In this document: positions 3,626 through 31,652 of the stretch, in pieces
Layout: every line of letters begins with the position of its first letter
Numbering within the stretch: the first letter of the stretch is position 1
Source: Chloroflexota bacterium
Lineage (GTDB): Bacteria; Chloroflexota; Dehalococcoidia; JACVQG01
Reading direction: 5' to 3'
Assembly: GCA_016210545.1 (NCBI GenBank)
Contig: JACQTY010000032.1
Coordinates: 1-53,212 of the forward strand
Length of the DNA stretch: 53,212 nt
The notes under the pieces: model-generated
Database searches by the model: none
Told to the model about the DNA's origin: nothing
The model's input: the letters and a program-made list of their open reading frames with translations, nothing else
Translations under genes and position numbers: made by a program

Positions 3626-4603
3626 CTATATCCACCGGCGGTGTCTGAAGAAATACAACATGCCGGCCACAACGGCAACTTGAAGGATAACGGTGCCTAT
3701 GAACACGTTCGTGTTGTTCACCCACGAAGCGGGTATGGTGTTGGACCCGGCCACGGTAGATAGCAGCTCCACCGGCATGAGGACCGCGATGAATATGGTC
3801 AGCACACGCATTATCTCCTGGATGCGGTGAGAGGTGAGCCAGTTGCTGGTGTCGGACAGGGAGTCCACGATCTCCCTGTGGTCCTCCAGTGTGCCGCGGA
3901 TCTTGTGCAGGTGGTCGCCAATGTCGCCGAAGTAGACTCCCAGGTCTTCGTCCAGGAACGGGTACTTCTGGTTCTCCAGGTTCCGCTCCAGACCGTCGAT
4001 CACGTCGATCTGGGGGCGGATGATCCGGCGCAAGGAGATTATGTCCCTGCGGAGCACCAGGATGCCCTGGGCCGTCTGGGGCACCGGCTTACTTATGACA
4101 GCGTCCTGCAGGGACTCGATGTTGTCGTTGATCTTGTCCAGCATGGGGAATATGGCATCCACCAGGCGGTCTATGACCTGATAGAAGAGGTAGCCGGAGC
4201 CCTTCTCCATGTATTTGCGGCGCAATTGCTCGTCCAACTGGCACTCCTTGAAGAGTTTGGCCAGAGGCTTGAGGTCGCCGCCGCAGTGCACGGTCACCAG
4301 GAAATTCTTCCCGACGAAGATATCCACCTCGCTGGGCAGGCTGATACGGGCCTGCTTATCGAAAACCGGGAAGTGCAACACTGTGAACAGGTGCTCGTCG
4401 TATTCGTCGATCTTGGGTCGCTGGATACGGCTGAGGCAGTCCTCCAGATTCAACGGATGAAAATAAGTATACTCCTTAGCCAGTATGTCTATCTCTCGCG
4501 GCGTAGGGCGTTCGATATAAGTCCATGTGAGGTCGCCCCAGGTGACCTTCCACAGGTTCATCTGTGCCGGCTGCTTCTCCCTGGTCGGTTGGACTACCGC
4601 CAT
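3626..4603 (-). CDS. CorA-family divalent-cation transporter-like protein (non-canonical GSN in place of GMN)
   Basis: 325 aa. C-terminus LTIFIAVLMPVELLSTVAGSNTIP aligns to the CorA LT..F.P..F..G.YGMNF..MP signature, followed by a second TM helix and a basic tail (FRHRRWI). ATG 4603 is preceded by AGAGGAGAAAG. Confidence 0.75.
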   Translation of the reverse strand: MAVVQPTREKQPAQMNLWKVTWGDLTWTYIERPTPREIDILAKEYTYFHPLNLEDCLSRIQRPKIDEYDEHLFTVLHFPVFDKQARISLPSEVDIFVGKNFLVTVHCGGDLKPLAKLFKECQLDEQLRRKYMEKGSGYLFYQVIDRLVDAIFPMLDKINDNIESLQDAVISKPVPQTAQGILVLRRDIISLRRIIRPQIDVIDGLERNLENQKYPFLDEDLGVYFGDIGDHLHKIRGTLEDHREIVDSLSDTSNWLTSHRIQEIMRVLTIFIAVLMPVELLSTVAGSNTIPASWVNNTNVFIGTVILQVAVVAGMLYFFRHRRWI

Positions 4604-4832
4604 CTTTCTCCTCTGCTAGGCCCGGGTACGGGCGCGGTGCACCATGCCCGTACCGAAATCCCAAGCAATCCCAAATCTCAACGACCAAAGAGTTCTGGCG
4701 ACTCCTCCCTGCTAGGCCCAACAGGTCGAAAAAGTCCCCCGCCAAAGGTTTGACCACGCCTGTCTCAGTGTTGAGATTTGGGTCATTTGGATTTGCCTGG
4801 AGTTTAGAAATTAGTGCTTGGGATTTCCGTGT

Positions 4833-5828
4833 CTATATCCAGCGCCAGCGGTGGAACAAGAACACCATTCCTATCACGATAGTTACTTGCACAGCGACTG
4901 CGCTGGCGAAGTGAGGGCTGTTGTGGACCCAGGCCCGGGGTATGCTGTTGGCGCCTTCCATATCGGAAAGCAGCTTGACAGCCGTAAAGACCGCCAGGAA
5001 CATGGTCAGGAGTCGCATTATGCCCTGAATACGATGGGATGTCAGCCAGTTACTGGTGTCGGAGAGTGAGTCTATTATGTCTTTTTGGTCTTCCAACACA
5101 CCACGGATCTTGTGGAGGTGGTCTCCCACGTCGCCGAAGTACTCCCCCAGGTCCTCCTCCAGAAAAGGATGCCTCCGCCTTTTCAATTGGCGCTCCAGAC
5201 TGTCCATTACCTCTATCTGAGGCCGCACGACACGCTGCATGGAAATGATATCGTGGCGGACGACCAGGATACGTTGCGCGGTACGGGCCTCGGGTCTAGT
5301 TATGACTGTGTCCTGCAGCGACTCGATCTTATCATTGATCTTGTCCAGCATGGGGAATATGGCATCCACCAGCCGGTCTATGATCTGGTGGAAGAGGTGG
5401 CCGGAGCCCTTTCCCATATACTTGCGGCGCGCTGTTTCGTCCGTCTGGCAGTCCCTGAAGAACTGGGACAGGCGTTTCAGGTTCCCCGAGCAGTGAACGG
5501 TTACCAGGAAGTTCTTGCCGATGAAGAAGTCCACCTCGCTGGGGGAGCTGACTTGCGCCTGTCTGTCGTAGACAGGGAAGTGCAACACCATGAACAGGTG
5601 TTCGTCGTACTCGTCGATCTTGGGGCGCTGGATGCGGCTGAGGCAGTCGTCCAGGTTCAGCGGGTGGAAGTATGGGTGATTCCTGGCCAGGTTCTCCATT
5701 TCACGTTGCGCAGGCCGCTCGATATACGTCCAGGTGAGGTCACCGAAGGCGATCTCTGACATGGCAGGCTGCGCCTGCAATTCGTCTTTTGCGCGTTGGG
5801 TTAGGGCCACATAGCGCCTCGCATACAC
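4833..5828 (-). CDS. CorA-family transporter-like paralogue (GAN in place of GMN)
   Basis: 331-aa ORF, clearly paralogous to 3626..4603 along its whole length (GDLTWTYIERP, YFHPLNLEDCLSRIQRPKIDEYDEHLF, DTSNWLTSHRIQ). Start is uncertain: GTG 5828 or ATG 5762. Confidence 0.75.
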   Translation of the reverse strand: MYARRYVALTQRAKDELQAQPAMSEIAFGDLTWTYIERPAQREMENLARNHPYFHPLNLDDCLSRIQRPKIDEYDEHLFMVLHFPVYDRQAQVSSPSEVDFFIGKNFLVTVHCSGNLKRLSQFFRDCQTDETARRKYMGKGSGHLFHQIIDRLVDAIFPMLDKINDKIESLQDTVITRPEARTAQRILVVRHDIISMQRVVRPQIEVMDSLERQLKRRRHPFLEEDLGEYFGDVGDHLHKIRGVLEDQKDIIDSLSDTSNWLTSHRIQGIMRLLTMFLAVFTAVKLLSDMEGANSIPRAWVHNSPHFASAVAVQVTIVIGMVFLFHRWRWI

Positions 5829-5865
5829 GTCTGGGGGTCACAGTTTGGCCTGCCCGGGACTGGTC

Positions 5866-6786
5866 CTACAGCTTCAGGTAGCTGTGGGCGTAGAGGATCT
5901 TGCCTTCCAGCATCTGGATGGTCTTCGCTATATCCTTGACTTCCTGATTGGACATGTTCACGCCGCCAGCGTCGAATTTCTCCGCTGCGGCATAAGTATC
6001 GTAAAGGGCCAGGTAGACTTTGCCTTTGGGGGTCGAATCGTCCCGCTTCTCAAGAATGCGCAGCGCCCCCATTAGCTCCTTATCCATCGGGTCGGCGATG
6101 GCTGAGTCCAGGCCGGCCCCCAGCAGCATGACCATGAACACACGGTTGATGAGCGGGCGCAGTTCGTTGGGGGCCCCGTTGGAAATGTTCGAGAGGCCGC
6201 AGGTCGTCATGGGCGGCGGGTCCGACATCTGCTTGAAGAAGCGGACGGCTTCCACGGTGTTCATAGCCTGGTCCTGGTTGCCGTTGACCGTGAGCACCAG
6301 CGGGTCAAGATATATGTGCTGCGACGGCACGTTGTGCTGGGCGCAGATCGGCAGGATGTGTTCCGAGGCCAGTTCGATGCGGGCGTCCGCGGTAGTGGGC
6401 AGACCAGTGGCGGCTAACGTCAGGGCAATGATGTTTGCGTTGTATTGGGCAGCCAGCGGCACCAGGGCGTTCAGTCGCTCGGGGGTGGCGTCGGTGCTGT
6501 TGATGATGGGCTGCATGGTCGTTACCTTGAGGCCGGCCTCGATGGCGACGGGGTTGGTGGTATCCAGCGAAAGGGGGGTATTGGTGACCTCCTGCACGGT
6601 GTTGACTATCCACTCCATGACCGCCGCCCCATCCTTCTTGCGGGGGCCGATATTGAGGTCGATCACGTTCGCGCCTGCTTTGACCTGCCGCAGGGCCAGG
6701 TCCTGGATGAATGCCTTGTCCCGGGTATCGATCGCGGCCCGTACCTTGGGGGAGATTACATGGATGGACTCACCGATTACGATCAT
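5866..6786 (-). CDS. acsE: methyltetrahydrofolate:corrinoid/iron-sulfur protein Co-methyltransferase
   Basis: 306 aa. Pterin-binding fold, collinear with Moorella MeTr (IIGE.I.., DLN.GP, MEW.V..VQEV.., SLD.TN..AIEAGLK, INST, GLSN.S). Confidence 0.85.
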   Translation of the reverse strand: MIVIGESIHVISPKVRAAIDTRDKAFIQDLALRQVKAGANVIDLNIGPRKKDGAAVMEWIVNTVQEVTNTPLSLDTTNPVAIEAGLKVTTMQPIINSTDATPERLNALVPLAAQYNANIIALTLAATGLPTTADARIELASEHILPICAQHNVPSQHIYLDPLVLTVNGNQDQAMNTVEAVRFFKQMSDPPPMTTCGLSNISNGAPNELRPLINRVFMVMLLGAGLDSAIADPMDKELMGALRILEKRDDSTPKGKVYLALYDTYAAAEKFDAGGVNMSNQEVKDIAKTIQMLEGKILYAHSYLKL

Positions 6787-11862: not shown

Positions 11863-13791
11863 TCACCTTGTTGCTGCCTTTTCCAGCGCCGCCTTCACCG
11901 TAGGGAACTGGTCGATGTCCGTATGGGGCAGGAACATGGCCGCCATAAGCTCGTTCATGAAGCTGTTGTCGGCGATAAGCTCCAGGTACGTCATCTTCCC
12001 CGCCATCTCGTCTGCCTTTTCCCGGGCGTATTTGGACAGCAGCACATTGTAAGCGCCCCATAGCGAAGTGTTGCCCAGAAACTTGAACCGGTCCCAGGGC
12101 AGGTCGGGGAGCAGGCCTATCTGGATGGCCTCCTCGATGTCGATGTGCTGCCCGAAAGCCCCGCCGATAAGGACCTCTTCAATGTCGGACAGGTTTATGC
12201 CCAGGTTGCGGGCCATGACGGCCATCCCGGCGTAGATAGCTGCCTTGGTCCGGATAAGATTATTAATGTCCACCTCGGTGAGGACTATGTCCTGCCCGTT
12301 GCCGGACTCGGCGGCCCAGGCCAGCACGTATTCCGCGCCGTGGTCGCCCTTGCGTACGCGGGAGCGATCGCCCATGACCTCTTGGACGTAAGAGGTCTTC
12401 ATGTGGCCGGAGCGGTCGATAACCCCGGTGACCAGCATTTCGGCCAGGGCTGTGATCATGCCCGAGCCACAGATGCCCAGGGGCGGTACATCGCCGATGG
12501 TATGCAGGGATGGACCCAGGGTCTTGTTGCTGATCCTGACTTCCTCGATGGCCCCTGTGGTAGCCCGCATGCCGTGGCGCACTCCCGCGCCCTCGAAGGC
12601 GGGGCCGGCGCTGCAGGCGCAGGTGGTCATCCAGTCCTTGTTCCCCAGGACTATCTCGCCGTTGGTGCCCACGTCCAGGAACAGCGTCAGCCTGTCGGTA
12701 TTGAACAGGCAGGCTGCCAGGACGCCCGCGGTTATGTCGCCGCCCACGTAGGCGGCCACCGCCGGCAGGTTGTAGATGGACGCCAGGGGGTTTATGTCTA
12801 CGCCCAACTGGGCGGCGGTCAACACCGGGAATTGGTTGGCGGTGGGCACGTAAGGCTCTTCCCGGATGGACTTGGGCGGCATGCCGAGGAAGAGGTGCGT
12901 CATGGTGGTATTCGACGCCACCACCATCTGGTACACCTGTCTGGTATCGAAGCTGTGCTTCTGAGAAAGCTCTTTTACGAGATTATTGATGGCGTCTACC
13001 ACCAGGTGTTGCAGCTCTCCGAGGCCCCCCTTCTCGCTGTAGACGATGCGGGAGATGACATCCTCGCCGCGAGCGATCTGCCGGTTGCGCTCCGAGACCC
13101 GCTCAATGGCCCGTCCCGACCGGAGGTCCACCAGGTCCATGACCACATTCGTGGTACCGATGTCCAGGGCGATGGCCAGCAGCGGCCCCTTCGGCTTGCC
13201 CGGCTGAATATCGATGAGGCGGGCCTCCCCCAGTCGGCTGTCGGCGTCCAGGGTCAGCGTTACCTTCCAAGCCGACTGGCGGAGGGTAGAGGCCAGACGT
13301 TGGAGCACAGGCAGCTCAACGTAAAGCTGCTCAATGCTGTGCTCCTGCGACAGCACCCTCTGAAGCCTGTCAACGTCGGTGAAGGCGTCCTCCAGGGTGG
13401 GGGGCGTCAGTTCTACATATATCTGGCGGACCGCGGGATAGCGGGGCCATTCGTACTTGAGGGCAGTGGCGGTGCGGGTCCCTGCCCGCTCCTCGACCAC
13501 CTTCTCCCGCTCCTTGCGCGGCGGGACATTCAGGCTGAGGTCTCCGGCTACTCTGGCCACGCAGGCCAGCACCCAGCCTTCCTGAAGCTGTTTTGCCGAA
13601 AGGTGAGGGTTCTCGCGGTGGCTGACCTCGCCGCTCTCCACCCTCACCAGGCAGCGGCCGCACCGGCCCTGGCCGCCGCAAGGGGTATCGATAAGAAGAC
13701 CAGCCTTGGCGGCGGCGTCCAAAAGGAGCGTACCGGCGGGCGCCTCAATTGATTTGCCGCTGGGTTGAAAGGTTATCTTTGGCACTGGCAC
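11863..13791 (-). CDS. acsV: corrinoid activation/regeneration protein (RACo/AcsV type: 2Fe-2S ferredoxin + ASKHA ATPase)
   Basis: 642 aa. N-terminal plant-type ferredoxin motif CGGQGRCGRC. Large C-terminal actin-like ATPase region (DIGTTN.., DVGTNGE). Genomic context with acsCDE. Confidence 0.8.
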   Translation of the reverse strand: MPVPKITFQPSGKSIEAPAGTLLLDAAAKAGLLIDTPCGGQGRCGRCLVRVESGEVSHRENPHLSAKQLQEGWVLACVARVAGDLSLNVPPRKEREKVVEERAGTRTATALKYEWPRYPAVRQIYVELTPPTLEDAFTDVDRLQRVLSQEHSIEQLYVELPVLQRLASTLRQSAWKVTLTLDADSRLGEARLIDIQPGKPKGPLLAIALDIGTTNVVMDLVDLRSGRAIERVSERNRQIARGEDVISRIVYSEKGGLGELQHLVVDAINNLVKELSQKHSFDTRQVYQMVVASNTTMTHLFLGMPPKSIREEPYVPTANQFPVLTAAQLGVDINPLASIYNLPAVAAYVGGDITAGVLAACLFNTDRLTLFLDVGTNGEIVLGNKDWMTTCACSAGPAFEGAGVRHGMRATTGAIEEVRISNKTLGPSLHTIGDVPPLGICGSGMITALAEMLVTGVIDRSGHMKTSYVQEVMGDRSRVRKGDHGAEYVLAWAAESGNGQDIVLTEVDINNLIRTKAAIYAGMAVMARNLGINLSDIEEVLIGGAFGQHIDIEEAIQIGLLPDLPWDRFKFLGNTSLWGAYNVLLSKYAREKADEMAGKMTYLELIADNSFMNELMAAMFLPHTDIDQFPTVKAALEKAATR

Positions 13792-14435
13792 CTCGGAAGG
13801 GTAGATCCCTCTTTGTCCCCCTTATTAAGGGGGATACAGGGGGATTAGGGCGTTACGTTCCTCGCAAGGACAAGCACCTGTGAAGCGCAGGAGTTATCCC
13901 TAGACGACTCGCGAACAAAGTCCATTTTATCACACTTGGAGTCGGAGGCGTATAGGTCCGGGCTGCATCGGAAGAGATGACGGCCCCTCCGGTACCTGTG
14001 TGGGGAGATACGGCAGAGGACCACAATTGGTTTTTGAGCAACTGCGAGGGGCTATTGACAACGGTGGGAGGTATGCTATTGTGGCTGTGCCGGCCGCAAC
14101 TGCACCATCTTGACTTTTGTACACTGGGCCTGCGAGACCCCGCCTTCTCACCTGGTATCGCAACCTGATATAATAGTGCCGCAATTGACAACAGGACGTA
14201 GGGTCGATGGCCTTGGACAACCAGGTTCGCTAGACCGTCAGGCAAGCGGATTCCAGTCATTAACCTATGAGTACGAGGCATAAAAAGAGAAGAGCATCGG
14301 AACGCAGACTTGCCAAGGCCAGCAAGCGCACCCCAATCACAATCTGGACAATAATCATCACTCCTTTGGTGGCTCTGGCCGTGGGGATAGCCAGAGAGAT
14401 AGCCCAGGCATGATAACAGTGGGAGGTGTCGACAA

Positions 14436-15113
14436 GTGACAGGGCCTATGTCAAAGGGAAAGTGTAGTTTTTGCAATGCCACTTTTAGTAAGGCGGCAAT
14501 GACCAGGCATCTGAAGTCATGCAAGCAAAGAAAAACTGCGTCAGAGAAATCAGCGCAGAATCAGAATTTACAGAAAGCTAAAAGTTTTCATCTTGTGGCT
14601 GAGGGACGCTACTTACGTGAATACTGGATGCATCTGATGGTACCATCTGCTGCAACGCTTGAGGACCTCGACAATTTTCTCAGAGGTATGTGGCTAGAAT
14701 GTTGTGGACACTTAAGTGCATTCACAATCGAAGAGAGAACGTACTCCATAAGTCCCATGAGAGAGTATAACGAAAGGAGTATGGCGGTTGCACTTGGTCG
14801 TATTCTCAGGCCCGGAATGAAAGTTTATCATGAGTACGACTTCGGCACGACTACAGAGCTCGTCCTGCGAGTTATGTCAGAACTGGGAAGTGGATCTAGA
14901 GGTAAATCTATTCAGCTTATGGCCAGGAATGAGCCGCCACTGATAGTCTGTGAATCGTGTGGCAAAGTTGCTACACAAGTATGCACTGAATGTATCTCAT
15001 CGGGCGAAGGATGGCTTTGTGATGAGTGCGCTCTGGAGCATGAGTGTGGCGAAGAGATGCTTTTGCCGGTAGTTAACTCCCCACGCGTTGGGATGTGTGC
15101 ATATGGCGGATAG
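14436..15113 (+). CDS. zinc-ribbon protein with pRiA4b ORF-3-like core (function unknown)
   Basis: 225 aa in a low-GC stretch. N-terminal CSFC..H..C. Central L.DLDNFLRGMWLECCGHLSAF resembles the PRiA4_ORF3 family. C-terminal Cys-rich CESCG..CTEC..CDEC. GTG start 7 nt after GGGAGGTG. Confidence 0.45.
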   Translation: MTGPMSKGKCSFCNATFSKAAMTRHLKSCKQRKTASEKSAQNQNLQKAKSFHLVAEGRYLREYWMHLMVPSAATLEDLDNFLRGMWLECCGHLSAFTIEERTYSISPMREYNERSMAVALGRILRPGMKVYHEYDFGTTTELVLRVMSELGSGSRGKSIQLMARNEPPLIVCESCGKVATQVCTECISSGEGWLCDECALEHECGEEMLLPVVNSPRVGMCAYGG

Positions 15114-15295
15114 CAACATAATTCATGCCGAACGCTGAAGAACGCAGTGTATATACTTCGGGCTGCCCTTAACGCCATTACACCCCGGGACAGTGCTCCC
15201 TTCGGTCGCATCGTCTTTATTGCTTGGAACGTCCTATTATGTGGAAAAGCTACACGTTTGCCCCGACTGTGCAATGAACAGGCGGGGAGCGTGGT

Positions 15296-15532
15296 TGGAC
15301 AGGCTGTTCGGGCGTGAGTGGGAACGGCCGGAGCGGCTTGGGCCTTATCGAAAGCTTGCTTGCGCATGCCCGGGTCCCTCAGGATTTTCTATATGGTAGC
15401 GGGTCTGAGGTCCTGAGGCGTCCGGAGGAATACACCGGGCCGCTGGCTCGCCAGGACTGTCGTGTGTTGACCCGCCGTTCGGACTGGGGTACTATCAATC
15501 TGCGGAGTGAACGATGGACAAGCTACTTATTG
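15296..15532 (+). repeat. direct repeat P1 (promoter/leader plus first 7 codons of the Phd-like antitoxin), copy 1
   Basis: Aligns base-for-base with 16060-16288 (roughly 85% identical by eye). The antitoxin reading frame here stops after 9 codons (15514-15543). Confidence 0.85.
15467..15495 (+). promoter_or_regulatory. sigma70-type promoter TTGACC-17-TACTAT (copy in P1)
   Basis: TTGACC 15467-15472, 17-nt spacer, TACTAT 15490-15495, followed by a GGAG SD and ATG 15514. Confidence 0.55.
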
Positions 15533-15559
15533 GATACCGTTGAGGTTGAGGCGTAGCCG

Positions 15560-15760
15560 TTGAATATCGAGATGGGACGCGAAGAGGATGGCCGGTGGAT
15601 AGCCGAAGTGCCTGATTTGGCAGGCGTCATGGTGTACGGAAAGAGCAAGAAAGAAGCTGTTTCCAAAGTCAAGGCTTTGGCCTTGCGTGTGATGGCTGAT
15701 CGGCTTGAACACGGGGAAGAAATCCCGGAACTCCGTGACATCTTCGCAGTAGAAGCATGA
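15560..15760 (+). CDS. hicB: HicB-family antitoxin (UPF0150 fold)
   Basis: 66 aa. EEDGRWIAEVPDLAGVMVYGKSKKEAVSKVKAL matches the HicB N-terminal domain pattern. Start is TTG 15560 or ATG 15572. Stop overlaps the hicA ATG (ATGA). Confidence 0.75.
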   Translation: MNIEMGREEDGRWIAEVPDLAGVMVYGKSKKEAVSKVKALALRVMADRLEHGEEIPELRDIFAVEA

Positions 15761-15971
15761 GCCAATGGCCGTCAACCAAAGCACGATTAGTTCTGGCTGC
15801 CTTGCTACGGATTGGCTGGATGGTCAGCGTCAATCTGGCACATCGCACCGAGTCTTATCCTGTCCCGGGCGGCCAGATTTCATTTTCGCGTTTCATGATA
15901 GAGAAGAAATAGGCCCTCAGATGCTGGCCCGTATTGCTAAGCGTACAGGGCTAACACCGGATGATCTATGA
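15757..15971 (+). pseudogene. hicA: HicA-family mRNA interferase toxin, frameshifted
   Basis: The N-terminus MSQWPSTKARLVLAALLRIGWMV is in the frame of ATG 15757. The C-terminus QSGTSHRVLSCPGRPDFIFAFHDREEIGPQMLARIAKRTGLTPDDL is in the track ORF frame (15765..15971). The frames switch near 15820-15830. Confidence 0.75.
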
Positions 15972-16001
15972 TTGGGGGCCTAAAGACAAATTCTCCCAAC
16001 T

Positions 16002-16059
16002 CCCCTTAGTAAGGGGGGCAGGGGGATTCCGGTACGGCAGTTCTTCCCCTTCTGCTCAC
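16002..16059 (+). repeat. repeat X1: degenerate copy of the REP hairpin plus acsC 3' end
   Basis: GGATTCCGGTACGGCAGTTCTTCCCCTTCTGCTCAC matches GGATTCCGTTACGTCAGTTCTTCCAGTTCTGCTTCA at 16664-16702. The latter contains the acsC stop and last codons. Confidence 0.75.
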
Positions 16060-16288
16060 TGGACGGGTTGTTCGGCGTAAGGGGGAACCGCCGGAGCGGT
16101 TTAGGCCTTATGGAAATCTTGCTTACGTACGCCCGGGTCTCTCAGGATTTTCGATATCGTACCGCGGGTCCTGAGGCGTCCGGAGGAATACACCGGGCCG
16201 CTGGCTCGCCAGCACCGTCGTGTTGACCTGCCATTCGGAATGGGGTACTATCAATCTGCGGAGTGAACGATGGACAAGCTGCTTATTG
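16060..16288 (+). repeat. direct repeat P2 (promoter/leader plus antitoxin start), copy 2
   Basis: See P1. Carries TTGACC 16223-16228, a 17-nt spacer and TACTAT 16246-16251, then a GGAG SD and ATG 16270. Confidence 0.85.
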
Positions 16289-16476
16289 ACAGCGTGCTTC
16301 ACCTCAAGCCAGCCGAACGTATGCGACTGCTGAAGCTCATCTACACCAGCCTTGAGCGGCCGGATACAACGATCGACAACATATGGTATGACGAAGCCGA
16401 GAGGCGGTTGGCTGCGTACAACGCGGGTAAAATCCAGGGCATTCCGGCTGATCAGGTGCTTGGCAAGCGCTCATGA
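16270..16476 (+). CDS. putative addiction-module antitoxin (Unstab_antitox / TIGR02574-like)
   Basis: 68 aa. LKPAERMRLL..L..SL ... WYDEAERRLAAYNAGK..GIPADQV is typical of this antitoxin family. ATGA overlap with the downstream toxin remnant. Confidence 0.7.
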   Translation: MDKLLIDSVLHLKPAERMRLLKLIYTSLERPDTTIDNIWYDEAERRLAAYNAGKIQGIPADQVLGKRS

Positions 16477-16631
16477 CCCTGGTCTTCGATCCTCTCGCTA
16501 AGAGGGAGTACGAGGATAGCTTCCAGTACTACGAAGGGGAGGGGGTTGGACGGGTTGTCCGCTCTAGCATGAGGAAAGGGCCTGCAGTAGGGGCAATTCA
16601 TGAATTGCCCCTACGGGCGGAGACGGGATGA
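16473..16631 (+). pseudogene. RelE/ParE-family toxin remnant (only about 25 N-terminal codons retained)
   Basis: MTLVFDPLAKREYEDSFQYYEGE matches the ParE/RelE N-terminus (F.P.A..E..ea..YYE). The frame then runs into REP hairpin sequence (GTAGGGGCAATTCATGAATTGCCCCTAC) and stops. Confidence 0.55.
16587..16614. repeat. representative GTAGGGGC...GCCCCTAC palindrome
   Basis: Perfect 28-nt palindrome GTAGGGGCAATTCATGAATTGCCCCTAC. Related elements are at 25447-25497, 25961-25984, 28092-28155 and 31694-31722. Confidence 0.8.
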
Positions 16632-16679
16632 ATCCCCCTACCCCCTTTACTAAAGGGGGCGAAGGAGGATTCCGTTACG

Positions 16680-18032
16680 TCAGTTCTTCCAGTTCTGCTT
16701 CAGGAAGCCGCCCACATCCACTGCCTCCCTGGGCCCGACCAGTATCTTCCAATCAGGCAGCTCTTCCTCCAGCTCGCCGCGGAGGACGGCCACGTGCCCG
16801 GGGATAACCACATTGCGGTGGCTGACGTTGTCGGCTATCTTGAAGTTCTTCACCGACTTGGCGATCTTTTCGGCGTCGAACTTGCCGGCGGCCCAGGCGG
16901 TGAGCACGGAGAGGCCCTCGGTATCGCAGACCACGAGCCAGGCGGCCCACCCCGCCGCTTCCAGCTCTCCGGCGATGGCGAAGTAGGTCAGCGAGAAGTT
17001 GGTGGTGATGCACACCGGACTTGTCGCCTTCGGCGTGCCTATCTGGACAATCTGCGGCGTCACCTGGATGGGCTTCTGCGGGTCGGTGTATATGTTCAGT
17101 CGCATGGTTAGCAGCGGGTATACCAGCGCCGGAGAGAAGTGGTCCAGGACTATGATGCCGGCATACTTGGCCACCTGTTGGGCAGCCAGCATGGCCTCGG
17201 TATCGAGGGAAGCAGCGGCCTCGCCGGGGAAGGTGATGACCGGGTAGCCCAGCGGGCGGAAGTTCTTCTTCAGGGCCAGGCGGCGGATCTGGGTCAGGGT
17301 GCTGAGCGAGGGGCCGAAGTCCCTGGCGCCGGGGTCCAGCACTATCTCTTCGATGCCTTTCTTGCTTACCTGATCCACCAGGGCGGTCAGGTCGTCCAGG
17401 GCGCCGTTGCTGGAGACAGCCAGCGGGCACTTGTTCTTGACGGCCAGATCGGCCATCTTTTCCCAGTTATCCTTGTTGGCGGCGTAGATGAGGGGCCTGC
17501 CCGGCGTCGCCTTGGCCAGGGCGGCCTCCATAGCCGCCGGGTCCTGCGAAATGAGCACCAGGGGCAGGTCGCTCTTGCTCTTGACCGCCTCCACCGCCTT
17601 GGCGAAGGTGGCGGCGTCCTTGGAGGTGTTCTCCACGGCGAACCCGTCCATGGTGAGGAACCTGCCTACTCTTTCCACCTTATACTCGGCTGCCGCCTGC
17701 ACCTGCTGCTGCAGGCTATCGGCGGGGGCGTTGTCCTTCACACGGAGGACGAGGCCCGGCGGATGGAAGAAGGTCTTCTCGTGACGGAACATCACCGTCT
17801 CGTTGCCCACCTCGAGCTTCTTGCTGTCCGAGCCGAGGGTGACCAGTTGAATCGGGGGACGCCCGGCAGCCTCCAGGGCAGCGCGGGACTCAGCCGAGAG
17901 GTCGGGGCAGGTGGTGATGTTCACGGTCTTCTGCGCCACCTTCATGGCGAAGGCCAGGCAGGTGGGGAAACCGCACTTTTTGCAGTTAGTCTTGGGCAGG
18001 AACTTGTAGATCTCTATTCCGGTAAGTGCCAT
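16680..18032 (-). CDS. acsC: corrinoid iron-sulfur protein large subunit (CFeSP gamma)
   Basis: 450 aa. N-terminus LTGIEIYKFLPKTNCKKCGFPTCLAFAM is the [4Fe-4S] motif of AcsC/CdhE. Confidence 0.9.
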   Translation of the reverse strand: MALTGIEIYKFLPKTNCKKCGFPTCLAFAMKVAQKTVNITTCPDLSAESRAALEAAGRPPIQLVTLGSDSKKLEVGNETVMFRHEKTFFHPPGLVLRVKDNAPADSLQQQVQAAAEYKVERVGRFLTMDGFAVENTSKDAATFAKAVEAVKSKSDLPLVLISQDPAAMEAALAKATPGRPLIYAANKDNWEKMADLAVKNKCPLAVSSNGALDDLTALVDQVSKKGIEEIVLDPGARDFGPSLSTLTQIRRLALKKNFRPLGYPVITFPGEAAASLDTEAMLAAQQVAKYAGIIVLDHFSPALVYPLLTMRLNIYTDPQKPIQVTPQIVQIGTPKATSPVCITTNFSLTYFAIAGELEAAGWAAWLVVCDTEGLSVLTAWAAGKFDAEKIAKSVKNFKIADNVSHRNVVIPGHVAVLRGELEEELPDWKILVGPREAVDVGGFLKQNWKN

Positions 18033-29348: not shown

Positions 29349-30850
29349 AGACCTACGTTCCCAACAAGTTCATTGTCGAGAGAGACGAGAGCAAGTGCGT
29401 CGGTTGCCAGGTGTGCGTCACCCAGTGTAGCTTTGAGACCCATTCCTGGGATGGCGAGGAGCAGGCGGTGAAGAGCCAGCAGGACCGCTGCGTGGGCTGT
29501 CACCGTTGCGCCATGTTCTGCCCCACCGGCGCCATCACCATCCGGCGCAACCCGCTGGAGTACCGCGAGAACTATAACTGGCGGGCGGAGTACATCGAGG
29601 ACGTTTACAAGCAGGCGGAGACGGGCGGCGTGCTGCTGACCGGCATGGGCACCGACAAGCCCCACAAGATCTACTGGGACCATCTGGTGCTGAATGCCAG
29701 CCAGGTTACCAACCCCTCCATAGACCCGCTGCGCGAGCCGATGGAGCTGCGCACCTATCTGGGCCGCAAGCCGGAGAAGGTGGAGCTTGGTCCGGGCAAC
29801 GCCTCTCTGAAGACCCGGCTGGCGCCCCAGGTGCCCATCGAGGTGCCGGTGATGTTCTCGGCTATGTCGTACGGGGCCGTCAGCATCAATGTCCACGAGT
29901 CCCTGGCGCGGGCGGCTACTGAGGCGGGCACGCTGTTCAACACCGGCGAGGGTGGCCTCCATCCCAAGCTGTACAAATATGGCCAGAACACCATTGTCCA
30001 GGTGGCGTCGGGGCGCTTCGGCGTCCACGCCGAGTACCTGGACGTGGGCCGGGTTATTGAGATAAAGATCGGACAGGGGGCCAAGCCGGGCATCGGCGGG
30101 CACCTGCCCGGCGAAAAGGTGAGCAAAGAGGTCGCCGAGGTGCGCATGATCCCCATGGGGACCGATGCCCTGTCCCCCGCCCCGCACCATGACATCTACT
30201 CCATCGAGGACCTGTCCCAGCTTATCTATGCGTTGAAGGAGGCCACCAACTACACCAAGCCGGTATCGGTGAAGATCGCCGCTGTCCACAACGCCGCGGC
30301 CATAGCCAGCGGCATGGTGCGGGCCGGCGCCGACATCATCGCCCTGGACGGCATCCGCGGGGCCACCGGCGCTGCCCCCAAGATAATCCGGGACAACGTG
30401 GGCATACCCATCGAGCTGGCCATCGCCTCGGTGGACTCCCGGCTGCGGGCCGAGGGTATCCGGAACCAGGCGTCGCTGGTGGCGGCGGGCGGCTTCCGCA
30501 ACGCCGGCGACGTGGTCAAGGCCATCGCCCTGGGAGCCGATGCCGTCTACATCGGCACCGCGGCCCTGATCGCTATGGGCTGCGCCGTGTGCCAGCAGTG
30601 CCACACCGGCAAGTGTGCCTGGGGCATCTGCACCTCCGACATTACCCTGACCAAGCGCCTCAATCCTGACATCGGCTCCCGGCGTCTGGCCAATCTGCTC
30701 CGGGCATGGAGCCTGGAGATAAAAGATATCCTGGGCGGCCTGGGCGTCAACGCCCTGGAGAGCCTGCGGGGCAACCGCCTGCACCTGCGGGGCGTCGACC
30801 TGACCGACACCGAGTTGAAGGTCCTGGGCGTGCAGATGGCGGGGGAATAG
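29345..30850 (+). CDS. glutamate synthase FMN-binding domain protein (GltB domain 2) with N-terminal 2x[4Fe-4S]
   Basis: Start ATG 29345 (ATGA overlap with the upstream stop). CVGCQVCVTQC and CVGCHRCAMFCP. GOGAT core FSAMSYGA, NTGEGG, IKI.QGAKPG.GG.LPG.KV, DG..GATGAAP. Confidence 0.85.
   Translation: MKTYVPNKFIVERDESKCVGCQVCVTQCSFETHSWDGEEQAVKSQQDRCVGCHRCAMFCPTGAITIRRNPLEYRENYNWRAEYIEDVYKQAETGGVLLTGMGTDKPHKIYWDHLVLNASQVTNPSIDPLREPMELRTYLGRKPEKVELGPGNASLKTRLAPQVPIEVPVMFSAMSYGAVSINVHESLARAATEAGTLFNTGEGGLHPKLYKYGQNTIVQVASGRFGVHAEYLDVGRVIEIKIGQGAKPGIGGHLPGEKVSKEVAEVRMIPMGTDALSPAPHHDIYSIEDLSQLIYALKEATNYTKPVSVKIAAVHNAAAIASGMVRAGADIIALDGIRGATGAAPKIIRDNVGIPIELAIASVDSRLRAEGIRNQASLVAAGGFRNAGDVVKAIALGADAVYIGTAALIAMGCAVCQQCHTGKCAWGICTSDITLTKRLNPDIGSRRLANLLRAWSLEIKDILGGLGVNALESLRGNRLHLRGVDLTDTELKVLGVQMAGE
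30684..30850 (+). repeat. direct repeat R1 = functional 3' end of the FMN-domain gene
   Basis: Near-identical to 31483-31652. The copies share 71 nt, then 1 substitution, 10 identical nt, a 13 vs 16 nt replaced block, then 68 identical nt. Confidence 0.9.
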
Positions 30851-31463: not shown

Positions 31464-31482
31464 CCCGGATATGGCGCCTGCT

Positions 31483-31652
31483 GTCTGGCCAATCTGCTCC
31501 GGGCATGGAGCCTGGAGATAAAAGATATCCTGGGCGGCCTGGGCGTCAACGCCATGGAGAGCCTTCCCGATGCATCGGGACTGCACCTGCGGGGCGTCGA
31601 CCTGACCGACACCGAGTTGAAGGTCCTGGGCGTGCAGATGGCGGGGGAGTGA
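31483..31652 (+). repeat. direct repeat R2 = orphan copy of the FMN-domain gene 3' end carrying a CCCGA-TGCA-TCGGG hairpin
   Basis: See R1. It still reads in frame to a stop (..ESLPDASGLHLRGVDLTDTELKVLGVQMAGE*). The hairpin is at 31565-31580. Confidence 0.9.

Follow-up and report, generated by a model that had tools for sequence, protein, structure and literature searches.

Between acsV and acsC, two minus-strand genes for the corrinoid activation protein and the large subunit of the corrinoid iron-sulfur protein, respectively, the DNA analyzed here (the window: all 53,212 nucleotides of contig JACQTY010000032.1, assembly GCA_016210545.1, from a Chloroflexota bacterium of the Dehalococcoidia) holds 2.9 kb of plus-strand DNA that splits the two genes and is referred to below as the islet. 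The part of the islet nearest to acsC consists of two toxin-antitoxin (TA) units, each of which starts in a copy of one promoter-bearing block (P1 or P2) and ends in a copy of one flank that joins a repetitive extragenic palindrome (REP) to the end of acsC (X1 or X2), the upstream unit carrying hicB and hicA and the downstream one an antitoxin gene with the remnant of a parE toxin gene (parE'); it is the origin of this doubled arrangement that is dealt with here (Table 1). Elsewhere the spacer between acsC and acsV measures 19 nt in a genome of the same genus (G001) and 40–50 nt in two further relatives (G002 and G003), acsV lies directly downstream of acsC in most of the 80 metagenome loci collected, and the gap is below 250 nt in 44 of the 53 metagenome loci that show both genes, which makes the islet lineage-specific.

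An earlier note on this DNA, made from the letters alone, had proposed comparing the occupants of the gap among relatives, and the comparison returned, besides the empty sites in G001–G003 and most metagenome loci, a third state, i.e., a single TA unit with an intact ParE gene on a 2.1-kb Logan contig (L021), whose AcsC fragment is 94% identical in amino acid (aa) sequence to that of the window. In L021 the islet consists of REPs and a homologue of 13909–14042, followed after 160 nt of unrelated DNA by the 150 nt at the 3' end of P, the antitoxin gene and an undamaged ParE gene (96 aa), with a tail and a REP leading on to acsC; relative to it, the window has 14043–16141 in excess, that is, a 48-aa open reading frame (ORF), the pRiA4b ORF-3-like gene (not found in L021), P1, hicBA, X1 and the initial 82 nt of P2. 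A scan of JGI metagenomes with AcsC gave only relatives at no more than 70% identity and no further close versions of the gap, and the exact-protein look-up of the window's antitoxin and HicB pointed to no other assembly.

Table 1. Features of the islet and of the two genes that enclose it, in positions of the window.
Feature	Position	Strand	Content or basis
acsV (RACo, corrinoid activation protein)	11863–13791	-	Pfam RACo_C_ter, Raco_middle, RACo_linker, Fer2
X0	13817–13858	+	REP hairpin, then CGTTACGT (exact 8-mer, also in X2); brackets the islet on the left, beside acsV start
Left islet part shared with L021	13909–14042	+	75% identity, blastn of L021 vs. window
Cys-rich pRiA4b ORF-3-like protein gene, 225 aa	14436–15113	+	PF07929 24.5 bits, below cut-off
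P1	15296–15532	+	E1 (15296–15336), context, -35 (15467–15472), -10 (15490–15495), Shine-Dalgarno sequence, antitoxin codons 1–6
hicB antitoxin gene, intact, 66 aa, TTG start	15560–15760	+	Almost all of 2837 homologues are 66 aa long and carry the source name HicB
hicA toxin pseudogene	15757–15971	+	1-nt deletion between 15825 and 15826 (alignment with five relatives)
attC R'' box stub of the hicBA cassette (GGCCTAAAGAC)	15977–15988	+	Lies where homologous cassettes have GCCTAAC or GCCGAAC
X1	16000–16059	+	REP hairpin, decayed copy of last acsC codons and 10 nt downstream
P2	16060–16288	+	E2 (16060–16099), context, -35 (16223–16228), palindrome (16231–16243), -10 (16246–16251), Shine-Dalgarno sequence, antitoxin start
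Antitoxin gene, intact, 68 aa	16270–16476	+	PF09720 Unstab_antitox / TIGR02574, 53.6 bits vs. cut-off 23.3
parE' remnant, 5' end (about 22 codons) of a gene for a 96-aa ParE	16473–16546	+	blastn/tblastn vs. intact L021 ParE
E3, third E element copy (TGGACGGGTTGTCCG...)	16547–16586	+	Native tail downstream of parE; one of two genomic copies of the 15-mer at one mismatch or fewer
Palindrome GTAGGGGCAATTCATGAATTGCCCCTAC of a second REP family	16587–16614	.	Repeat search
X2	16630–16704	+	REP hairpin (16641–16659), true acsC 3' end and stop codon
acsC (corrinoid iron-sulfur protein, large subunit)	16680–18032	-	Pfam CdhD 352 bits, FeS

P1 and P2 are 87% identical over 229–237 nt (E 1e-76 in a search against the whole genome), close to the roughly 85% that the earlier note had put by eye; three small indels interrupt the repeat, leaving ungapped segments of 85%, 96% and 94% identity, and a gapped alignment of the extended blocks gives 83%. 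The spacing is 756–764 nt from P1 to P2 and 643 nt from X1 to X2. In the 3.34-Mb assembly a P2 query matches P2 and P1 alone, so that there are two copies in total, and no match to the P block was found in 60 related genomes, GTDB contigs (searched with the exact 46-nt core as a pattern), plasmids or viral contigs, the last two collections being negative for the array as a whole, too. The signals that had been pointed out in the two blocks (a TTGACC-17-TACTAT promoter, a GGAG and ATGGACAAGCT(A/G)CTTATTG) are indeed present in both of them, and, again as described, the Unstab_antitox frame in P1 halts after 9 codons (15514–15543), the first six being true antitoxin codons. Between the -35 and -10 boxes of P2 there is a perfect operator-like palindrome, CCATTCGGAATGG, placed as a putative autoregulation operator would sit, and its counterpart in P1, CCGTTCGGACTGG (15475–15487), has lost two of its six pairs, given which P1, now the driver of hicBA, may have become able to escape repression by the antitoxin.

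The stretch of P2 shared with L021 according to blastn is 16142–16288. Homology between the two P blocks reaches 170 nt upstream of the -35 box, whereas in the other hosts of this antitoxin/ParE family (L022–L025, L106 and L107) similarity begins only at the -35 box itself, which is why these 170 nt are to be regarded as context of the locus and not as part of a mobile module; as they are present in both P1 and P2, copying inside the locus is favored over two independent arrivals. The 5' part of P was also considered as the decayed 3' half of a parE gene, a candidate that was rejected on finding that local alignments to three parE genes were no better than those to shuffles, and a search for structured RNA with Rfam at E values of up to 1 gave no match within 14300–17300.

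The X flank is composite. Its right half, CCG(G/T)TACG(G/T)CAGTTCTTCC..TTCTGCT, comprises the last acsC codons plus 10 nt, agrees between X1 and X2 at 29 of 33 positions and occurs nowhere else in the genome, whereas its left half is a REP, CCCCCTTTACTAAAGGGGG..GGGGGATTC, with 258 motif matches genome-wide (104 of them oriented), to which the hairpins of X0, X1 and X2 all belong and which, as a short G+C-rich palindrome with many intergenic copies, is of the REP or bacterial interspersed mosaic element (BIME) type. The X similarity thus exceeds the REP background only in part, namely in the right half, which is unique to these two copies. In X1 the acsC stop TCA reads GCA, as the earlier note had it, and going by its sequence X1 is a pseudo-copy of the acsC end, apparently decaying without selection. 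That X1 directly abuts P2 was likewise seen correctly: the junction lies at 16059/16060 (...CTGCTCAC|TGGACGGG...), with GGA-type microhomology at most. X2 and the X of L021 are 85% identical, X1 is 78–80% identical to either, and the REP loop and spacer of X1 are closer to those of L021 than to those of X2. As for X0, the chance of the exact 8-mer CGTTACGT standing at its position is about 1e-4 per REP arm, and X0 and X2, as direct repeats, bracket exactly the DNA that is missing from G001–G003. A Y1_Tnp gene is present in the genome (contig C63); on a groundwater contig (L023, 2112–2846), a Y1_Tnp gene of the IS200/REP-associated tyrosine transposase (RAYT) type lies directly upstream of an antitoxin/ParE pair homologous to the one described next.

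In the downstream unit, the antitoxin opened by P2 is intact, as claimed, although its family is Unstab_antitox and not Phd. It has 76 homologues at 50–90% identity, which are paired with ParE in L021–L025, and it overlaps parE' by ATGA at 16473–16476; with a PF09720 antitoxin gene immediately upstream of, and overlapping, a toxin gene, the pair is of type II. The toxin gene itself is broken: homology to L021 ends at 16534, E3 sequence comes next, and the open frame continues into unrelated sequence to 16631, the resulting 52-aa ORF having no Pfam match where an intact ParE/RelE-fold toxin would have about 96 aa (ParE of L021 matches PF05016). Because an alignment (z 3.7) pairs E3 plus its tail with the sequence that follows parE in L021, the lesion is an internal deletion of about 265 nt. 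The E element occurs at 15296, 16060 and 16547, its 15-mer having no further copy in the genome at one mismatch or fewer, and two rearrangement end points coincide with its left edge; E1 and E2 were rejected as homologues of the L021 parE tail, the alignment being not significant for P1 and P2. The second-family palindrome GTAGGGGCAATTCATGAATTGCCCCTAC reaches a summed contig depth of 4000–5900 (up to 5867) in two groundwater runs, and is evidently shared by many organisms of that groundwater community.

The upstream unit does carry hicB-hicA behind the P1 stub, as had been stated, though with hicA short of 1 nt. HicB is full length when compared with its 2837 homologues, its Pfam HicB_lk_antitox score being 20.6 bits (below the cut-off of 27), whereas no intact HicA is encoded, its read-through scoring 39.6 bits against PF07927 (cut-off 27). 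In relatives, too, hicA is broken, independently in L107, L109 and L115 (by an in-frame stop, by 1-nt and 7-nt deletions, and by truncation), with hicB intact in each. DNA homology to the closest copies (L106, L107 and L109; 82–89%) extends from 15529, 31 nt before hicB, to about 15995, and these relatives are flanked by integron-type attC sites: a canonical 61-nt attC (GCCTAAC...GTTAGGT) follows hicA in L109, GCTAAAC...GTTAGGC precedes hicB in L106 and L107, similar sites accompany hicBA in L145 and L162, and an R''-like box directly after the hicA stop is present in 19 of 63 loci. Moreover, L106 and L107, which come from two unrelated runs, have the same promoter and a 33–34-codon stub of the same antitoxin upstream of attC and hicBA, an arrangement seen in none of 80 GTDB hicB loci. 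As these two unrelated metagenome contigs carry it, the adjacency of promoter, stub and hicBA predates the version in this genome, and the change of cargo was not purely local; we infer that the six-codon fusion of the window is derivable from an L106/L107-like arrangement if about 325 nt were lost between two ATTG motifs.

Taken together, these data are best explained, at roughly even odds (a probability of about 0.5), by one illegitimate head-to-tail duplication of a segment comprising E, context, promoter, TA genes, tail, REP and the acsC end, followed by a swap of the upstream cargo to hicBA and then by toxin decay, which agrees with the earlier reading of the order P1-hicBA-X1-P2-antitoxin/parE'-X2 as a tandem duplication of a [P-cargo-X] unit with replacement of its cargo. 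The ancestral state would be the one displayed by L021, i.e., a single unit beside acsC made up of context, a sigma-70-type promoter, the Unstab_antitox antitoxin, the ParE toxin, a tail and a REP. A segment of about 0.65–0.76 kb, from the E element to some 25 nt inside the acsC 3' end, would then have been duplicated head to tail through an illegitimate, microhomology-level join of 'CTGCTCAC' in X1 to 'TGGAC' in P2, so that one event would yield both P1/P2 and X1/X2. The upstream copy would next have exchanged its sequence from antitoxin codon 7 as far as the REP for a promoter-less hicBA fragment that runs from 31 nt before hicB to the attC R'' box stub, and whose source would be an integron-type gene cassette, probably in an L106/L107-like arrangement (promoter, 33-codon stub, attC, hicBA) shortened by deletion at ATTG microhomology; the junctions of this replacement can be read directly, its route is conjectural, and its outcome would be hicBA under P1, a promoter of the parDE type, with a 9-codon relic ORF in front. 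The final step, visible in the present-day sequence, is the loss of 1 nt from hicA and of the part of parE that lies between about codon 22 and the E3 tail, with both antitoxin genes left intact. No dedicated swapping enzyme would be needed for any of this, and none is present.

The features that carry this explanation are those of a tandem segmental duplication, that is, head-to-tail copies, a single novel junction, and paralogues that resemble each other more than they do the orthologue, to which L021 adds the single-unit state and X1 the pseudo-copy. Over the 150 nt shared by all three, P1 and P2 are 89% identical to each other and 81% identical to L021, the pattern expected of a duplication after the split from the L021 lineage; between the window and L021, nucleotide identity is 88% in acsC and 81% in non-coding DNA. 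Several observations weigh against it, nevertheless. The neutral divergence between the copies is large (85% identity in the 5' part of P, about 80% in X), and two diverged source lineages might account for it instead; a third copy of the E element stands exactly at the end of the parE' deletion, with E1 and E3 sharing 11–12 nt on the left, which a single duplication does not predict; by virtue of X0, the islet itself is bracketed by direct repeats of REP plus CGTTACGT, hinting at a recurrent, target-duplicating process; the region of the X1|P2 junction folds into a closed attC-like structure (z -3.3); and continuity across the 39–46-nt cores that P1 and P2 have in common depends on the original assembly and on the depth being equal rather than on inspected reads.

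The recurrent process hinted at by X0 is the substance of the alternative that fares best, though it is unlikely: serial accretion at an att-like site formed by the acsC 3' end and its REP, where small integrase-less elements would have been added one by one, mobilized in trans or by Campbell-type homologous recombination of circles carrying a copy of the acsC end, the target being duplicated each time, to give the order acsC-X2-[P2 unit]-X1-[older 2.2-kb element]-X0-acsV. Three direct copies of [REP+CGTTACG..] are what such a history would leave, as is decay that grows with distance from acsC (X2 intact, X1 at about 80% with acsC codons, X0 with only the REP and 8 nt), and both the exact bracketing by X0 and X2 of the DNA absent from G001–G003 and the L021 islet at the same site are in keeping with it. 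However, the islet is without an integrase or recombinase, the tyrosine recombinases of the genome look Xer-like only, E2 abuts X1 while E1 is internal to what would be the older element, and the homology of P1 and P2, as sister copies relative to L021 that include 170 nt of non-mobile context, would require a separate explanation.

Somewhat less probable still is that the large divergence between the units reflects allelic recombination, with related populations carrying either P-hicBA-REP-acsC or P-antitoxin-parE-REP-acsC, flanks (P to the left, REP/acsC to the right) guiding the ordinary homologous replacement of cargo, and one unequal or illegitimate exchange stacking both units. The divergence of the units (about 11–20%) is of the same order as that between the window and L021, the REP loop and spacer of X1 side with L021, the promoter-stub-hicBA chimera is found elsewhere (L106/L107), and the Hakubella contigs described below show TA-like pairs replaced from strain to strain beside a pRiA4b-like gene. 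Yet no single-unit hicBA allele beside acsC turned up in any collection searched, the upstream context in L106/L107 is unrelated, and an illegitimate X|E join is still needed, which makes for more steps than a duplication followed by cargo change.

As to the attC-like fold, it might be tempting to see the islet as a degenerate integron cassette array, akin to the clusters of attC sites lacking an integrase (CALINs), in which the E elements would be attC 3' halves, P would start at a cassette boundary, and the three units would be former cassettes whose integrase was lost; this is improbable. An attC array was taken to consist of at least two sites of the form R''-L''...L'-R' (RYYYAAC...GTTRRRY, 55–141 nt) bounding gene units. 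The genome is devoid of an integron integrase (IntI, TIGR02249; best score 79.5 bits, where the cut-off is 265, a weak signal that all 14 control genomes give as well), in line with the earlier note's remark that none was in sight, and no attC cluster or array was found anywhere in it. A strict scan for RYYYAAC...GTTRRRY plus fold, which does recover the attC of L109, found no attC in the islet; a relaxed scan was discarded as a test, as it picks up the L106 and L145 sites but returns 27 matches in the window and is non-specific. Among the false positives of attC scanning is a palindromic repeat family of about 80–100 nt, ACCTAACCC..CCCTTCCC..GGGAAGGG..GGGTTAGGT, with members at C125 23174–23254 and in C187, C195, C205 and C243.

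What speaks for former cassettes, besides the single orientation of the units and the attC-flanked relatives of hicBA, is the region 15974–16112, whose single-stranded DNA fold has an 8/8 closing stem GGCCTAAA/TTTAGGCC (the latter at 16100–16107, in P2, pairing with the R'' stub, which occupies the homologous site behind hicA), the REP hairpin, and a bulged L''/L'-like stem between the right half of X1 and the 5' arm of P2, which three of the four X1-specific substitutions improve; its z of -3.3 becomes -2.2 without the REP, and GTTTAGGC is close to GTTRRRY. This fold could be what is left of an attC, the result of quasi-palindrome correction, or a hairpin at the 3' end of hicBA, and an attC-like relic may span the X1|P2 junction (15977–16107). 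A GCCGAAC 13 nt after the pRiA4b-like stop, complementary to GTTCGGG in E1, points the same way, but the attC candidate to which it belongs (15127–15312) was rejected, since its 12-bp terminal inverted repeat pairs while the whole 186-nt fold is no stabler than shuffles; furthermore, the L021 tail is unstructured, and the copying of the acsC coding end in X1 would be left unaccounted for.

Just as improbable is the broadest version of these ideas, namely that the acsC 3' end plus REP is a recurrent docking site (recombinase-independent or served in trans), the islet a relic cassette array (with E as attC 3' halves and 15977–16107 as a REP-invaded attC), and the flanks recombination substrates for TA exchange, although, were it true, TA cargo would be exchangeable inside a core metabolic operon of an integrase-less genome. 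An active, general system for the flank-guided exchange of TA cassettes, a process which the earlier note had thought to fit equally well, is not supported, P being at one locus only, half of X being a REP, and there being no integron integrase and no recognizable attC array; of the integron-like behavior suggested there, what survives is that hicBA is a fragment of a cassette flanked by attC elsewhere.

That the whole arrangement is an assembly artefact is unlikely. At 0–1 mismatches, the region is covered by Logan contigs that stem from three samples taken in a single groundwater study, those spanning hicBA-X1-P2 being 15495–16196 (702 nt, starting at the 3' end of P1 and passing hicBA and X1 to end in P2), 15921–16196 and 15989–16177, all with one mismatch at most; others connect the pRiA4b-like gene with P1, and P2 with parE'. 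They break only at the 39–46-nt cores identical in P1 and P2, as expected with k=31, and depth is even and single-copy throughout (about 8–17x). That the assembler collapsed or chained two strain variants of a single locus is accordingly hardly credible: the genome is a 263-contig metagenome bin and the exact cores are natural breakpoints of de Bruijn contigs, but the middle piece starts and ends inside the P copies, so that the one linear path there is uses all three pieces, and independent contigs show continuity and even depth.

With regard to the rest of the surroundings, the pRiA4b-like gene is a widespread accessory gene with 4749 homologues, and its conserved DNA unit is 14422–15134. 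In Candidatus Hakubella (L194 vs. L195/L196) and Nitrospira (L198–L200), a pRiA4b-ORF3-like 225-aa gene lies between housekeeping genes beside TA-like pairs (DUF4258 + partner), and among the Hakubella strains the neighboring pair varies (DUF6788 + 78-aa ORF vs. DUF4258 + 86-aa ORF) while the flanks are constant, which amounts to a small replacement hot spot. No promoter-like site was seen on the minus strand upstream of acsV (13792–13900 inspected), which is severed from acsC. Another local direct repeat of the window pairs 30674–30846 with 31473–31648, about 800 nt apart, at 95–100% identity over 92 and 68 nt.

The locus, then, is a duplicated and decaying TA islet that by the tests run is not of the integron/CALIN class and reveals no new mobility mechanism. 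Its value lies in offering a clean, datable case of TA islets growing and rotting in an essential operon, with the empty-site, single-unit and two-unit states all in hand, and in illustrating that cassette-like repeated flanks can stem from a single duplication plus REP background. It also appears to contain a regulatory chimera, hicB being predicted to stand under a ParE-family promoter with the operator-like palindrome degraded in P1 and perfect in P2, and a 2.9-kb antisense insert between acsC and acsV may affect the expression of Wood-Ljungdahl genes in this organism.

Among known systems, segmental tandem duplication with pseudogenization is matched by the two head-to-tail units that share both flanks, the one novel junction, the decaying copy of a gene end, and paralogous flanks closer than the orthologue; unlike in such duplications, however, one copy had its cargo replaced and did not merely diverge, the duplicated segment takes in the last codons of a core metabolic gene, and a single event does not account for the E3 and X0 repeats. 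TA cassettes of sedentary chromosomal integrons and of CALINs are already known, as are attC clusters devoid of an integrase (Cury et al. 2016, PMC4889954; Richard et al. 2024, PMC13108822). The small TA operons of the window resemble these in having their own promoters and one orientation, in the homology of hicBA to attC-flanked cassettes and in a possible attC relic, but differ in that there is no integrase or recognizable attC array, the hicBA piece is without both recombination points, and what is repeated at the flanks is not attC but a promoter block and, on the other side, a gene end with a REP. When cis-mobilizable elements (CIMEs) and integrative and conjugative elements (ICEs) accrete in tandem at the 3' ends of tRNA or protein genes, direct repeats copying the target 3' end separate the inserts, the in-gene copy remaining intact while the distal ones decay. 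The window likewise has direct repeats that copy the acsC 3' end between inserts, with the in-gene copy intact and the distal ones decayed, yet its inserts are only 0.6 and 2.2 kb long and have no recombination module, and its repeat includes a REP. Finally, Saavedra De Bast et al. reportedly put forward, in 2008, an anti-addiction idea in which the decay of chromosomal type II TA systems leaves orphan antitoxins; both toxins of the window are inactivated and both antitoxins and promoters kept, much as that idea would have it, except that hicB has come to stand under the promoter of another TA family, by which its regulation has possibly been rewired.

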